From the sequence record OR906198.1: 64,000 nucleotides of DNA; one strand, 5' to 3'. The stretch is from Escherichia phage BP32. The position numbers and the translations under genes are program-made. The first letter of the stretch is position 1. Every line of letters starts with the position of its first letter. The notes below the pieces were generated by a model. That model made no database searches. It worked only from the letters and a program-made list of their open reading frames with translations, and was not told the DNA's origin. Positions 8,906 through 63,368 of this stretch are shown piece by piece.

Positions 8906-9134
8906 AGAATATATGGAGATTGCTGAAAAAGCAGTCCGTGAATTAGCAATAGCTTATTATAATGAACACGGTAAATTTCCTGATAGATATAGCGTTCTTA
9001 AATCTGCTTTAACTCGTTCATATAAAAATATGCTATCAGAAGTAAGTGATATTATATACAAACATAAAGAACAAACGGGCCAAAGTCTTGATTATGACGA
9101 GACTTTTAAACAAGTACTAGGAATTAAGGAATAA
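8892..9134 (+). CDS. hypothetical protein (80 aa)
   Basis: In-frame ATG at 8892 within track ORF 8733..9134; overlaps upstream gene by 14 nt. Confidence 0.45.
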
Positions 9135-9135
9135 T

Positions 9136-9399
9136 ATGTTTAAAGTATATGGTTATGATAGCAACATCCACAAATGTGTGTATTGCGATAATGCAAAACG
9201 TCTTTTGACTGTGAAGAAACAGCCGTTTGAATTTATCAACATTATGCCGGAAAAAGGTGTTTTTGATGATGAGAAAATTGCTGAACTTCTGACTAAACTA
9301 GGTCGTGACACTCAAATCGGATTGACGATGCCTCAGGTATTTGCTCCTGATGGAAGTCATATTGGTGGATTTGACCAATTGCGGGAATACTTTAAATGA
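9136..9399 (+). CDS. nrdC: phage thioredoxin/glutaredoxin NrdC
   Basis: 87 aa, CVYC redox motif; sequence matches my recall of T4 thioredoxin. Confidence 0.85.
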   Translation: MFKVYGYDSNIHKCVYCDNAKRLLTVKKQPFEFINIMPEKGVFDDEKIAELLTKLGRDTQIGLTMPQVFAPDGSHIGGFDQLREYFK

Positions 9400-9611
9400 T
9401 GCTCGAAGGAACTGATTATATCCATGACTACCGCGGAAGCGCGGTATATGTGGGTGATGAGGTTGCAGTTTATTATGGGTATGGAACTTTGATGACAGCA
9501 AAGGTTATTCAAATTAAAAATGGCCGTGCTAAACTCGAAGTTTATTATTCTAATGGTGAAAAGTCTATTTCTAAATGGAAATACGGCGATTGTATGGTCA
9601 AATTGGGGTAA
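9396..9611 (+). CDS. hypothetical protein (71 aa)
   Basis: Track ORF; ATGA overlap with nrdC stop. Confidence 0.55.
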   Translation: MMLEGTDYIHDYRGSAVYVGDEVAVYYGYGTLMTAKVIQIKNGRAKLEVYYSNGEKSISKWKYGDCMVKLG

Positions 9612-9613
9612 AT

Positions 9614-9784
9614 ATGATTTACGATATTAGTGTATCAAGAACTCCGTCAATGGTTACTATTCCAGCTGAAGAATTAGATCGTCTTCAGAAAATTGAAGAA
9701 CTTCTTTGGGAAATTGAATCTGATTTGCCATCAGGATTAGAATCCTGGATTGATTATGAAGAACTTAATAAATTGCGAAATTAA
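9614..9784 (+). CDS. hypothetical protein (56 aa)
   Basis: ATG at 9614 after GGGGTAA; within track ORF 9575..9784. Confidence 0.4.
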   Translation: MIYDISVSRTPSMVTIPAEELDRLQKIEELLWEIESDLPSGLESWIDYEELNKLRN

Positions 9785-9794
9785 GTGGTGACAA

Positions 9795-10115
9795 ATGACT
9801 ATTGAAAATAAATTAGATGTTGATGCAGTTCTGAGTGAAATCATCGAAGACCATGATGCATTTTCAGAAAACTATGATTTCGATTTTTCGGATTATCTTA
9901 AACCTGTCGAAATAGAAGACTGGGTACAAGATGGCAAATGCCAATATCGGCAGTGTGTTTATTTTAGCCCAAAACATAATGTACATGTTTCCGTAAATGA
10001 ATGCCGTTCAGGTTCTTACCATTCTGACTGGTATTATGCAGTTCCGACTGTTGAATTAGTCGAGCCCCGTGAACGTGTAGTAACTCAGACAATACGAGAA
10101 TGGATTACGCTATAA
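9795..10115 (+). CDS. hypothetical protein (106 aa)
   Basis: Track ORF. Confidence 0.55.
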   Translation: MTIENKLDVDAVLSEIIEDHDAFSENYDFDFSDYLKPVEIEDWVQDGKCQYRQCVYFSPKHNVHVSVNECRSGSYHSDWYYAVPTVELVEPRERVVTQTIREWITL

Positions 10116-10238
10116 AACCTTGGTGGGCGGCTAGATGGGAAACAGTAGAGCCAGAGCCGGAAGAACCGGTTTACACTGATGAAGAAACAGTATATAATGA
10201 ACCAACGATAAATGACTTAATTGATATGGAGATGGGAC

Positions 10239-10685
10239 ATGATTACAGTAGATAAGTGGTTTAGAATTAATCGTGCTGATAAAGGGCTGTGTAATTACTG
10301 GCCGGAACTTAGTGCAGGTACTGTCTTTAAAGTTCGTGAACTCGCAAAAGAATGCGAAGATGATATAGAACCTGATACTGGAATTATTGAAATTGAACTT
10401 TCTGATGGAAAGATTATTAACATCTATGATAAGCCAATTACGTATTGGTGCTTATGGAATACTGAATCAGTAGAAAATGGCGAAATTGAAGAAGTTGTAG
10501 AACGAGCTGATCAAGCTCTTCATAAACCTAAAGCTGGATTTCAGGGTGAACGCATTTCATATGCATTATCTAAATCGGCGTTGAAAAAAGATATTGATGA
10601 TTATGAAGGAAATTTGATGCAAGCTGCGGCAGAATATATTGAATGGCTTGAAACTCAAATTTCTTTTTCTGACCGAGCGTTTTAA
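10239..10685 (+). CDS. hypothetical protein (148 aa) in the T4 pin/49.x position
   Basis: ATG at 10239 preceded by GGAG; track start 10221 is TTG; position relative to gene 49 resembles T4 pin but identity unverified. Confidence 0.5.
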   Translation: MITVDKWFRINRADKGLCNYWPELSAGTVFKVRELAKECEDDIEPDTGIIEIELSDGKIINIYDKPITYWCLWNTESVENGEIEEVVERADQALHKPKAGFQGERISYALSKSALKKDIDDYEGNLMQAAAEYIEWLETQISFSDRAF

Positions 10686-10704
10686 TACTTGAAAATAATA
10701 AATA

Positions 10705-10734
10705 CCCTTATCTATTTAAGGTAAGGGTTTTATT
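10705..10734 (+). promoter_or_regulatory. hairpin overlapping the gene 49 ribosome-binding site (terminator-like, translational control element)
   Basis: CCCTTA ... TAAGGG inverted repeat then TTTTATT immediately 5' of the gene 49 ATG at 10735; the 3' arm carries the AAGG/GGG SD. Confidence 0.5.
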
Positions 10735-11208
10735 ATGTTATTGACTGGCAAATTATACAAAGAAGAAAAACAAAAATTTTATAATGCGCAAAATGGTAAA
10801 TGCTTAATTTGCCAACGAGAACTAAATCCTGATGTTCAAGCTAATCACCTCGACCATGACCATGAATTAAATGGACCAAAAGCAGGAAAGGTACGTGGAT
10901 TGCTCTGTAATCTCTGCAATGCTGCGGAAGGTCAAATGAAGCATAAATTTAATCGTTCTGGCTTAAAGGGACAAGGTGTTGATTATCTTGAATGGTTAGA
11001 AAATTTACTTACTTATTTAAAATCCGATTACACCCAAAATAATATTCACCCTAACTTCGTTGGAGATAAATCAAAGGAATTTTCTCGTTTAGGAAAAGAG
11101 GAAATGATGGCTGAGATGCTTCAAAGAGGATTTGAATATAATGAATCTGACACTAAAACACAATTAATAGCTTCATTTAAGAAGCAGCTTAGAAAGAGTT
11201 TAAAATGA
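10735..11208 (+). CDS. 49: recombination endonuclease VII (Holliday junction resolvase)
   Basis: 157 aa; Cys-rich zinc motif CLICQ ... CNLCN; matches my recall of T4 gp49. Confidence 0.9.
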   Translation: MLLTGKLYKEEKQKFYNAQNGKCLICQRELNPDVQANHLDHDHELNGPKAGKVRGLLCNLCNAAEGQMKHKFNRSGLKGQGVDYLEWLENLLTYLKSDYTQNNIHPNFVGDKSKEFSRLGKEEMMAEMLQRGFEYNESDTKTQLIASFKKQLRKSLK

Positions 11209-13022
11209 CAATTGAAAAAGAAATTGAAGGATTAATTCATAAAACTAATAAAGACCTTTTGAACGAGAATGCTAATAAAGATTCTCGTGTTTTTCCAACT
11301 CAACGGGACCTTATGGCTGGTATTGTGTCTAAACACATTGCCAAAAATATGGTCCCGTCTTTTATTATGAAAGCGCATGAAAGCGGAATTATTCATTTCC
11401 ATGATATTGATTATTCCCCTGCTCTTCCATTTACTAATTGCTGTTTAGTAGATTTAAAAGGAATGCTTGAGAACGGATTTAAGCTCGGTAATGCACAGAT
11501 TGAAACTCCTAAATCAATCGGCGTTGCTACTGCAATTATGGCGCAAATTACTGCACAGGTTGCTTCCCATCAATATGGTGGAACGACTTTTGCGAATGTA
11601 GACAAAGTACTTTCTCCTTATGTTAAACGCACCTATGCAAAACATATTGAAGATGCAGAAAAATGGCAAATCGCTGATGCGCTGAATTACGCCCAGTCTA
11701 AAACAGAAAAAGACGTATACGATGCATTCCAAGCTTATGAATATGAAGTAAATACTCTCTTTAGTTCAAACGGACAAACGCCCTTTGTAACAATTACATT
11801 TGGCACGGGAACTGACTGGACTGAACGAATGATTCAGAAAGCAATTCTGAAAAATCGTATCAAAGGTCTTGGTCGTGATGGGATAACTCCTATTTTCCCT
11901 AAGCTTGTTATGTTCGTTGAAGAGGGTGTTAATCTTTATAAAGACGATCCGAACTATGATATTAAGCAGCTTGCTCTAGAGTGTGCAAGTAAAAGAATGT
12001 ATCCTGACATCATTTCGGCTAAGAACAATAAAGCTATCACAGGTTCATCTATTCCTGTTTCTCCAATGGGTTGCCGCAGTTTCTTAAGTGTATGGAAAGA
12101 TTCGACTGGTAATGAAATTCTTGATGGACGTAATAATCTTGGCGTTGTAACACTGAATCTTCCTCGTATTGCGTTAGATTCTTATATTGGAACACAGTTC
12201 AATGAACAGAAATTTGCCGAATTGTTCAATGAACGAATGGATTTATGTTTTGAAGCTTTGATGTGTAGAATCAGTTCCTTAAAAGGAGTTAAAGCTACTG
12301 TTGCTCCTATTCTTTACCAAGAAGGTGCATTCGGGGTTCGTCTTAAACCTGATGACGATATAATTGAGTTATTTAAAAACGGTAGAAGTTCAGTGTCCCT
12401 AGGATACATTGGTATTCACGAATTGAATATTCTTGTCGGTCGTGATATTGGACAAGAAATTTTAACTAAAATGAATACTCATCTTAAACAATGGACTGAA
12501 AGAACCGGATTTGCTTTTAGTTTATATTCTACTCCTGCTGAAAACCTGTGCTATCGCTTCTGTAAACTTGATACCGAAAAATATGGAAGTGTAAAAGATG
12601 TTACCGATAAAGGCTGGTACACTAACAGTTTCCACGTTTCAGTAGAAGAAAATATTACTCCGTTTGAAAAGATTTCTCGCGAAGCACCGTATCATTTCAT
12701 TGCGACAGGTGGTCACATTTCTTATGTTGAACTTCCTGATATGAAAAATAACCTAAAAGGTCTTGAGGCTGTATGGGATTATGCTGCACAACATTTAGAT
12801 TATTTTGGTGTTAATATGCCAGTAGATAAATGTTTTACATGCGGAAGTACCCATGAAATGACTCCTACTGAAAACGGATTTGTTTGTTCTATTTGTGGAG
12901 AAACTGATCCTAAAAAGATGAACACAATAAGAAGAACATGTGGCTATTTGGGAAATCCGAATGAACGCGGATTTAATCTTGGCAAAAATAAAGAAATCAT
13001 GCATAGGGTTAAACACCAATGA
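11205..13022 (+). CDS. nrdD: anaerobic ribonucleoside-triphosphate reductase
   Basis: 605 aa uninterrupted ORF; C-terminal glycyl-radical region and Cys cluster (CFTCG ... CSICG); ATGA overlap with gene 49. Confidence 0.95.
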   Translation: MTIEKEIEGLIHKTNKDLLNENANKDSRVFPTQRDLMAGIVSKHIAKNMVPSFIMKAHESGIIHFHDIDYSPALPFTNCCLVDLKGMLENGFKLGNAQIETPKSIGVATAIMAQITAQVASHQYGGTTFANVDKVLSPYVKRTYAKHIEDAEKWQIADALNYAQSKTEKDVYDAFQAYEYEVNTLFSSNGQTPFVTITFGTGTDWTERMIQKAILKNRIKGLGRDGITPIFPKLVMFVEEGVNLYKDDPNYDIKQLALECASKRMYPDIISAKNNKAITGSSIPVSPMGCRSFLSVWKDSTGNEILDGRNNLGVVTLNLPRIALDSYIGTQFNEQKFAELFNERMDLCFEALMCRISSLKGVKATVAPILYQEGAFGVRLKPDDDIIELFKNGRSSVSLGYIGIHELNILVGRDIGQEILTKMNTHLKQWTERTGFAFSLYSTPAENLCYRFCKLDTEKYGSVKDVTDKGWYTNSFHVSVEENITPFEKISREAPYHFIATGGHISYVELPDMKNNLKGLEAVWDYAAQHLDYFGVNMPVDKCFTCGSTHEMTPTENGFVCSICGETDPKKMNTIRRTCGYLGNPNERGFNLGKNKEIMHRVKHQ

Positions 13023-13489
13023 ATTATGATAGATTTTATCCTTGCGATTTTGTGAATGGCCCTGGATGCAGGGTCGTTCTTTTCGTTACAGGTTGTTTGC
13101 ATAAATGCGAAGGGTGTTATAATAAATCAACGTGGAATGCTAGAAATGGCGTTCCATTCACTGGTGAAACACTGGAACAATTAATTGAATGTTTGAATAA
13201 TGATTATATAGAAGGATTAACTATAACTGGAGGAGACCCTCTTTATCCTGATAATCGAGATGTTGTTCATTGCATTGTTCAAACAGTAAAAAATCTTTAT
13301 CCAAATAAAAGCATTTGGTTGTGGACAGGATATAAATTTGAAGATATTAAACAACTAGAAATGCTTAAATATGTTGATGTTATTATTGATGGGAAGTATG
13401 AGAAAAATCTTCCGACCAAAAAGCTGTGGCGAGGTTCAGATAATCAGCGACTTTGGTCAAATACCGATGGGGTGTGGAAACATGATTAA
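13019..13489 (+). CDS. nrdG: anaerobic RNR activating protein (radical SAM)
   Basis: 156 aa; CLHKCEGC cluster; ATGA overlap with nrdD. Confidence 0.9.
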   Translation: MNYDRFYPCDFVNGPGCRVVLFVTGCLHKCEGCYNKSTWNARNGVPFTGETLEQLIECLNNDYIEGLTITGGDPLYPDNRDVVHCIVQTVKNLYPNKSIWLWTGYKFEDIKQLEMLKYVDVIIDGKYEKNLPTKKLWRGSDNQRLWSNTDGVWKHD

Positions 13490-13603
13490 ATTGAATTATA
13501 TTATGGACACTATAAATGATATGATTTTTCATTTTGGTCCAGAATTTTATTCGCAGTATAGTTTAGTACTTATCAATGCTTGGTTAATCAATTAAGGGTA
13601 AAT

Positions 13604-38976: not shown

Positions 38977-38984
38977 TATAAATA
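38977..38984 (+). promoter_or_regulatory. T4 late promoter for soc
   Basis: Exact TATAAATA about 30 nt upstream of the soc ATG. Confidence 0.6.
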
Positions 38985-39014
38985 ATCATGTAATTTAAAT
39001 AAAAGGAGAATTAC

Positions 39015-39260
39015 ATGGCTAGTACTCGCGGTTATGTTAATATCAAAACATTTGAGCAGAAATTAGATGGAAATAAGAAAATTGAAGGAAAGGAAATTTC
39101 AGTAGCTTTCCCTCTTTATTCTGACGTTCACAAAATTTCTGGCGCTCATTACCAGACATTCCCTTCAGAAAAAGCAGCATATACTACTGTATATGAAGAA
39201 AATCAGCGTACTGAATGGATTGCTGCAAACGAAGATTTGTGGAAAGTAACTGGCGGTTAA
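39015..39260 (+). CDS. soc: small outer capsid protein Soc
   Basis: 81 aa; MASTRGYVNIKTFEQKLDGNKKIEGKE matches my recall of T4 Soc; late promoter upstream, terminator downstream. Confidence 0.92.
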   Translation: MASTRGYVNIKTFEQKLDGNKKIEGKEISVAFPLYSDVHKISGAHYQTFPSEKAAYTTVYEENQRTEWIAANEDLWKVTGG

Positions 39261-62681: not shown

Positions 62682-63338
62682 TTATTTAGCCCTTCCTAAT
62701 ATTCTGGCCGCCTGAGAACATATTGATTCAAGGCGGTCATTACTTATATGATCATTTCTATACCAGTACATGGTTATTGTTCCAGCATAGATATTATCCA
62801 AGTTAAAATATGGACAACTGTACATGTAATTTATTTCAGGAGTAGGCTTTTTAGTTGGCAAAAAAGCAAATTTTGAGTCAGAATAATAATGACGTCCATT
62901 TAAATGAACTGTATATTCATCCATAGTTTTATCAACAGGATATCCTCCAAGTGATTTTTCGCTTATTGTTGAAGGTAATTTTCCTTCATATGCTATAATA
63001 TCAACAAAATAGTTTAAGTTTTTAGGGCGGAAAGAATACACCGCACTAAAGTCTGCCTCAGATGATATGTGAACTATCTGGAGTTGTTCCAGGGCGACAG
63101 ATTCAAAGCGTGCATTTCTTTCCTTTTCAATAATTTCACTGTATGTTTCATACTTTGATTGCTTATAGTACTCAAAGAAACTATCTCCCCTATACCAAAC
63201 AATCGCCATCATAAATAAAAGAATTACGACAGCTACTCGGGAAGCAAGAACCTTCCCGGTAGCGTTATCTTTGAACAAGCGATCTAGAACACCCAACAGA
63301 ATATCAGAGGGCGAAAATGATATTCTAGGTGCTGCCAT
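62682..63338 (-). CDS. t: holin T
   Basis: 218 aa on minus strand; matches my recall of T4 holin; strong SD AAGGAGGG. Confidence 0.92.
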   Translation of the reverse strand: MAAPRISFSPSDILLGVLDRLFKDNATGKVLASRVAVVILLFMMAIVWYRGDSFFEYYKQSKYETYSEIIEKERNARFESVALEQLQIVHISSEADFSAVYSFRPKNLNYFVDIIAYEGKLPSTISEKSLGGYPVDKTMDEYTVHLNGRHYYSDSKFAFLPTKKPTPEINYMYSCPYFNLDNIYAGTITMYWYRNDHISNDRLESICSQAARILGRAK

Positions 63339-63368
63339 AGACCCTCCTTTTAAGGATATTTATTCAAA

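Follow-up and report, generated by a model that had tools for sequence, protein, structure and literature searches.

Immediately upstream of the gene for recombination endonuclease VII in Escherichia phage BP32 lies a short inverted repeat followed by a run of T residues, and the question it raises is whether this element ends transcripts arriving from upstream or controls when the nuclease is translated. The DNA analyzed here is a 64,000-nucleotide stretch of sequence record OR906198.1, referred to as the window. The phage is T4-like and belongs to Tequatrovirus; positions 10300-11300 match 767 phage records, with Escherichia phage JLBYU31 as the best match (98.3%) and T4 at 94.8%. On the plus strand, open reading frames (ORFs), Pfam matches and synteny with T4, which shares the order nrdC...pin-49-nrdD, place nrdC, 49.3-, 49.2- and 49.1-like ORFs, pin, gene 49 and nrdD in succession. 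Gene 49 itself (10735-11208, +) was assigned from its ORF and from Pfam and encodes an endonuclease VII of 157 aa with matches to Endonuclease_7 (8e-22) and Endonuc-dimeris (1.5e-33). The preceding gene, pin (10221-10685, +; start codon assigned mechanically), encodes the PinA Lon-protease inhibitor (Pfam Inhibitor_I24, 3e-47). The element between the two is very probably a translational switch with a late promoter embedded in it, the same as that described for T4 gene 49.

Such a switch presupposes RNA that enters the element from upstream. Read-through RNA is plausible here because the genes leading through pin to gene 49 all run in one direction with little space between them and the ORF list and terminator scan show no strong terminator, because an early-like promoter is conserved upstream, and because the T4 gene 49 transcript was classed as 'early' by RNA-seq (PMC9697503 supplement). 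The promoter, a T4-early-like sigma-70 sequence (GTTTACA-N17-TATAAT, with 11 of 12 matches to TTTACA-17-TATAAT) found by consensus scan at 10170-10198 (+), sits within the 49.1 ORF just 5′ of pin and is kept in T4 with 2 differences in 91 nt; it is a likely candidate source of early RNA entering the gene 49 hairpin. Since pin lies upstream in the same orientation, its transcripts would run on into that hairpin. In the same T4 data set, the hairpin-regulated genes e, segB and soc have early or middle RNA and late protein, and gp49 protein went undetected in the proteome, which is hence uninformative on its timing (PMC9697503 supplement). A MotA-type middle promoter upstream of nrdC was considered but is not claimed: although there is a TGCTTTA box near 9006-9012, no convincing -10 element could be assigned to it.

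The minimum free energy (MFE) fold of 10690-10750 is a 10-bp core stem stacked on an 8-bp A/U helix, with U10703 bulged. The 5′ arm of the core (ACCCUUAUCU, 10704-10713, +), supported by folding and by covariation, is joined through the loop AUUUA (10714-10718, +) to the 3′ arm (AGGUAAGGGU, 10719-10728, +), and this arm holds the Shine-Dalgarno sequence (SD) AAGGG (10723-10727, +), 7-8 nt 5′ of the AUG. In the lower A/U helix, the 5′ strand (AUAAUAAA, 10695-10702, +) overlaps the promoter octamer described below and is present only in read-through RNA, and the 3′ strand (UUUAUUAU, 10729-10736, +) includes the A and U of the gene 49 start codon, both of which are paired in the MFE fold. This 3′ strand doubles as the U-rich tail that gives the hairpin its resemblance to a terminator. 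A first-pass annotation made from the sequence alone had pointed to CCCTTA (10705-10710) and TAAGGG (10722-10727), to TTTTATT (10728-10734) between them and the ATG at 10735 with 7-nt spacing, and to an SD inside the 3′ arm. All of these are present and the hairpin is real, but its extent was under-described, the 6-bp repeat being part of a 10-bp core with an 8-bp A/U helix beneath it. The difference is considerable in energy, as the 6-bp CCCTTA/TAAGGG version accounts for only -4.4 kcal/mol, compared with -12.4 kcal/mol for the 10-bp core and -17.0 kcal/mol for the extended stem.

The folding-energy calculation that the annotation had proposed as a check came out clearly in favor of the structure. 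The MFE of 10690-10750 is -18.2 kcal/mol against -8.19 +/- 2.47 kcal/mol in 200 dinucleotide shuffles (z = -4.05), and none of the 200 shuffles was as stable as the native segment. Rfam covariance models searched against 9000-13500 gave no match at E-values up to 1. The idea that the repeat acts as a DNA cruciform, and thereby as a substrate of endonuclease VII, was discarded, as its arms are too short and nothing supports it.

The late-promoter-like octamer that had been suspected at about 10696-10704 is AATAAATA, with the exact span 10697-10704 (+), and it matches the consensus TATAAATA at 7 of 8 positions, carrying A at -13. The T4 late motif is the 8-bp TATAAATA located at -13 to -6 (PMC1524935), and among 50 listed T4 late promoters 32 are perfect and 9 have A(-13), the commonest variant (PMC2988020). 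The octamer overlaps the hairpin by one base, its last A (10704) being where the stem begins. Given that the motif spans -13 to -6, the late transcription start is predicted at A10710 +/-2 (10709-10712, +), with A10710 being base 7 of the 10 in the 5′ arm; the sharing of one base between promoter and stem thus means that late RNA would begin about 6 nt further on, inside the 5′ arm. In T4 late promoters, the bases right after the octamer tend to be AT-rich (PMC2988020), and no such segment directly follows the octamer here, where the next bases are CCCTTATC, three C first. As CCCTT is not AT-rich, the gene 49 promoter may be weak. The relatives examined below all share a stem-forming, relatively G+C-rich segment at this place.

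On both strands of the window, the motif WATAAATA occurs only six times (10697+, 38977+, 49295-, 60592+, 61019+ and 63357-), whereas 25.4 +/- 4.8 copies are expected from 100 shuffles, all of which held at least six. This approximately 4-fold under-representation indicates that WATAAATA is avoided in the window and that the octamer at gene 49 is not a chance occurrence. Three of the six copies lie directly 5′ of late-type genes, namely 49, soc and holin t. The scarcity of the motif suggests selection against stray late promoters in a mostly early region.

The position of the predicted start has a large effect on the accessibility of the SD in silico. Partition-function folds leave the SD free of pairing with a probability of 0.001 when the RNA begins 45, 100 or 200 nt upstream and of 0.58-0.61 when it begins at 10709-10712. 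Correspondingly, the local MFE changes from about -20 kcal/mol in long RNA to -4.9 kcal/mol in the predicted late RNA (10710-10795), which keeps a weak alternative fold, with the SD only ~60% free. In the mechanism that we propose, early and middle transcripts from promoters upstream (the nrdC-49.3-49.2-49.1-pin unit) would cross 10695-10736, and the read-through RNA would fold into an 18-bp interrupted hairpin in which the SD and part of the AUG are buried, so that 30S binding would be poor and little endonuclease VII would be made early. With the onset of transcription dependent on gp55, gp33 and gp45, RNA polymerase would initiate from the AATAAATA promoter, and the late RNA, starting ~6 nt beyond the first base of the stem at about A10710, would carry neither most of the 5′ arm nor any of the lower helix, leaving the SD and AUG single-stranded and translatable. 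The element would in this way delay a DNA-branch-cleaving nuclease to late infection, when branched replicative DNA needs resolving for packaging, though its gene sits in an early unit, a textbook case of temporal control by promoter choice combined with RNA folding.

The proposal follows the T4 precedent given in the first-pass annotation, in which gene 49 would be translated poorly from early read-through RNA and efficiently from a late transcript initiated inside the hairpin. The comparison with the T4 gene 49 upstream region bears this out: between AATACTTGAAAATAATAAATA (AATACTTG..., 42 nt upstream) and the ATG, one T inserted after the stem is the sole difference between the window and T4. 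The T4 element lies in the same place between pin and 49 and has the same AATAAATA, a 10-bp stem and the SD in its 3′ arm. Its U run is TTT as opposed to TTTT in the window, where the lower helix is longer and the element slightly more terminator-like, and the segment from -60 to +15 folds at -16.4 kcal/mol in T4 and at -19.2 kcal/mol in the window. In T4 itself, Barth, Powell, Trupin and Mosig reportedly mapped late transcripts to starts within the hairpin in 1988; the 18-kDa gene 49 product is said to have been made only from late RNA, and possible cleavage of the hairpin is also said to be mentioned in that work.

The genes e, soc, 49 and I-TevI of T4 are listed in a review among those in which helices sequestering the SD and/or AUG lower 30S binding (Uzan & Miller 2010, PMC3014915). 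Among the sources that Edgell et al. 2010 give for ribosome binding site (RBS) sequestration in T4 is Barth et al. 1988 (Genetics 120:329), although the sentence itself names soc, e, 39, 25 and 26; they describe the general logic as a late promoter positioned so that late transcripts miss the sequence forming the inhibitory structure (PMC2988022). Cases of RBS hairpins were described by Macdonald 1984, McPheeters 1986, Gott 1988 and Gibb & Edgell 2007/2009 (reviewed in PMC2988022 and PMC3014915). The hairpins of T4 soc, e (lysozyme) and I-TevI/segB/mobE share this logic of a late gene inside an early or middle unit; in the soc/e/I-TevI class, the SD and/or AUG is paired in the long RNA, and a late promoter gives a late RNA lacking the 5′ arm. 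Their sequences are, however, unrelated to the gene 49 element, and the geometry can differ, with soc having the AUG in the stem and the SD in the loop, whereas gene 49 has the SD in the stem and an AUG reached only by the lower A/U helix. The window carries a nearly unchanged version of the T4 gene 49 late-promoter/hairpin switch, which was already known; its presence confirms the annotation of the region, and the element is neither new nor mechanistically novel. For phage BP32, we infer the actual 5′ ends and the translational effect from the identity with T4, the reviewed T4 cases, the predicted start at A10710, the calculated SD accessibility and the covariation within the family presented below.

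Gene 49 loci were compared across Straboviridae using 17 GenBank phages of different genera and 79 IMG/VR contigs, which together yielded 98 loci with 65 distinct sequences from -45 to +3 and covered at least 14 genera in addition to the IMG/VR contigs. A motif NNTAAATA with a hairpin of -6 to -13 kcal/mol after it was found in 58 of the 65 distinct sequences, the end of the hairpin lying anywhere from -14 to +7 with respect to the AUG. In 55 of these 58 relatives the stem is closed by the final A of the motif, and in 56 the hairpin span includes an SD-like tetramer. Expressed per motif-bearing relative, the architecture is kept in 58 of 60 and the same phase with the stem in 55-58 of 60, while only 10% of dinucleotide-shuffled segments satisfy the motif-hairpin criteria and 3.4% show the exact phasing. 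The long RNAs of the relatives (-60 to +15) fold at -14 to -25 kcal/mol, and those beginning at the predicted +1 mostly at -1 to -5 kcal/mol.

The arms of the stem vary widely between lineages. Tequatrovirus, Dhakavirus, Mosigvirus and Gaprivervirus have the arms found in the window, ACCCUUAUCU / AGGUAAGGGU (5′/3′); the corresponding pairs are AGUUCAUCU / AGGUGAACU in Karamvirus, AGGUUCAUCU / AGGUGAACCU in Moonvirus, ACUCUUAUCU / AGGUAAGAGU in Jiaodavirus, ACUAUCAUCU / AGGUGAUAGU in Acinetobacter phages, AAUGACACC / GGUGUUAUU in Slopekvirus and Pseudotevenvirus, and AGAGUCAU / AUGACUCU in Aeh1-like phages. To judge from these arms, the stem sequence has been swapped out many times by compensatory change. 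Covariation was evaluated on an alignment of 40 distinct motif-plus-hairpin sequences, trimmed to the predicted hairpins, with 500 shuffles as the null. Standard pairs fill 91.2% of cells versus 68.4% after shuffling, and double changes number 82 cells versus 23.6, neither value being reached in any of the 500 shuffles, although these statistics overstate independence because the sequences are phylogenetically related. The covariation score is 0.462 in the proposed register and 0.04-0.13 in slid registers, and compensatory changes occur at 8 of the 10 pairs, three of which show four pair types each. RNAalifold applied to a plain MAFFT alignment of 14 upstream regions returned no structure, since variable loops and spacers put the 3′ arms out of register; folding per sequence and the motif-plus-hairpin alignment were used in its place.

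These comparisons also bear on the alternative that the main function of the hairpin is Rho-independent termination or attenuation of the early pin unit, with sequestration of the SD being incidental. The label 'terminator-like' given in the first-pass annotation fits the shape of the element, a stem-loop with a U-rich tail, and the shape only. A terminator consensus scan flags 10704-10728, followed by TTTATTATGT; the window has a run of four U, one longer than in T4, and an A-tract upstream of the hairpin; and the same hairpin is annotated as 'terminator' in the GenBank records of the close relatives Aplg8 (as an ARNold prediction) and NBG2. The stem, however, has only 4 G-C pairs in 10 and, at the core energy given above, is accompanied by a U run that is short and interrupted (UUUUAUUAU). 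Unlike in Rho-independent terminators, the gene 49 start codon follows 7 nt past the stem, and conservation of the tail does not extend to other genera. In 38 of the 58 relatives, the stem ends at most 3 nt from the AUG or inside the coding region, so that there is no U-tract, yet the hairpin, the inclusion of the SD and the promoter phasing are all retained. Stem-to-AUG distance was used for this comparison because a threshold of five or more T among the first 8 nt past the stem is confounded by the conserved coding start ATGTTATT. The 'early' class of the T4 gene 49 transcript (PMC9697503 supplement) further implies read-through of the equivalent hairpin. Termination as the primary function is therefore unlikely, while a partial attenuator role is possible and compatible with the translational switch, the two not being mutually exclusive.

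Still less probable is that the hairpin serves chiefly in RNA processing or stability, either as an RNase III-type site or as a 3′-protective stem for pin mRNA, and not as a ribosome block. An extended helix of 18 bp with one bulge would suit such a role, and the 1988 T4 study is reported to mention possible cleavage of the hairpin. Against it, the lower A/U helix that extends the stem is not kept beyond the T4-like core genera, whereas the SD-bearing core stem is conserved, and GGAG, the target of RegB, is absent from 10690-10740, by which a RegB site at the hairpin was ruled out. That the inverted repeat is a chance product of AT-rich intergenic DNA and the octamer a chance near-match to a late promoter is hardly credible, for although the region is AT-rich and the 6-bp version of the stem weak, the complete fold outdoes all of its shuffles, the late motif is 4-fold under-represented in the window, 58 of the 60 relatives with the motif keep an architecture that appears in 10% of shuffles, and compensatory covariation extends over 8 of 10 pairs.

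Reading the element as a promoter-embedded translational switch leads to the question of how widely it is distributed. Among the Straboviridae sampled, which range from coliphages to phages of Acinetobacter and Aeromonas, nearly all lineages have their SD-sequestering stem closed by the final A of their own late motif (TATAAATA, TTAAATA or CTAAATA). For example, Aeh1-like loci carry CTAAATA at gene 49, which is the Aeh1 late-promoter consensus (PMC1524935); judged from the sequences, the gene 49 motif tracks each lineage's own late-promoter consensus. We lean toward the view that the gene 49 switch is an ancient, family-wide module and not a peculiarity of T4; if this is true, selection would be acting on precisely how the transcription start is phased with the 5′ arm. 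A systematic description of such a module was not found in the literature searched, which did not extend to primary and older papers. The one modest addition made here is that promoter-stem phasing and a stem kept by compensatory evolution are found family-wide, which provides independent in silico support for a mechanism whose biochemical demonstration came originally from T4 only.

Among the exceptions, three loci from KVP40/nt-1-like vibriophages (L015, L091 and L092) carry just TATAAACA and form no stable hairpin that would sequester the SD (MFE -4.5 to -10.8 kcal/mol). The gene 49 homologue of nt-1 is flanked by oppositely oriented genes, and given this orientation the switch may be unnecessary there. 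One contig (L063) forms only a weak 4-bp helix. The loci L095-L099 encode distant endonuclease VII homologues; they are rich in G+C, do not have the motif and seem to fall outside Straboviridae. In a further contig (L075, IMGVR_UViG_2974770551_000001, ~340-403), the hairpin UUCCUCCAAUA ... UAUUGGAGGAA has the SD in its 3′ arm and TATAAATA in its loop, which would place the late start in the loop instead of the 5′ arm; the geometry is different but the logic is the same as in the gene 49 switch.

Elsewhere in the window, a second copy of the same regulatory design is present at soc (38977-39260, +; Pfam Soc, 1e-54), the classical T4 case. The late octamer TATAAATA (38977-38984, +) is followed by a stem (38986-38996 / 39008-39018, +) whose 3′ arm covers the AUG at 39015 and whose loop contains the SD AGGAG, with the predicted +1 at ~38990, inside the 5′ arm. 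On the minus strand (62682-63364), a holin t-like ORF of 218 aa has its ATG near 63338, and the octamer AATAAATA (63357-63364, -) lies 26 nt 5′ of that ATG, where a small UCCUU/AAGGA hairpin overlaps the SD.

The surroundings of the gene 49 element are less uniform than the element itself. At the 3′ end of pin and in the short stretch leading up to the element, the window (10640-10690) differs throughout from T4 (locus 1880-1925), and a recombination or indel boundary apparently lies just 5′ of AATACTTGAAAAT, with the switch left intact. Many relatives, among them Aplg8, NBG2, Dhakavirus and Mosigvirus, have an extra 58-aa ORF between pin and 49. Downstream, nrdD is a single unbroken ORF of 605 aa in the window (11205-13022, +), in contrast to T4 nrdD, which is split by a group I intron and the I-TevII homing endonuclease gene, both absent here. 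Within gene 49, the window has GTA at 10891-10893 (+), where the T4 annotation has GTG (codon 53) as the internal start of the nested gp49′. Across 10 Tequatrovirus-like loci, this codon is GTA in seven, GTG in two and GTT in one, and the nested 12-kDa gp49′ product may accordingly not be made from codon 53 in most relatives.
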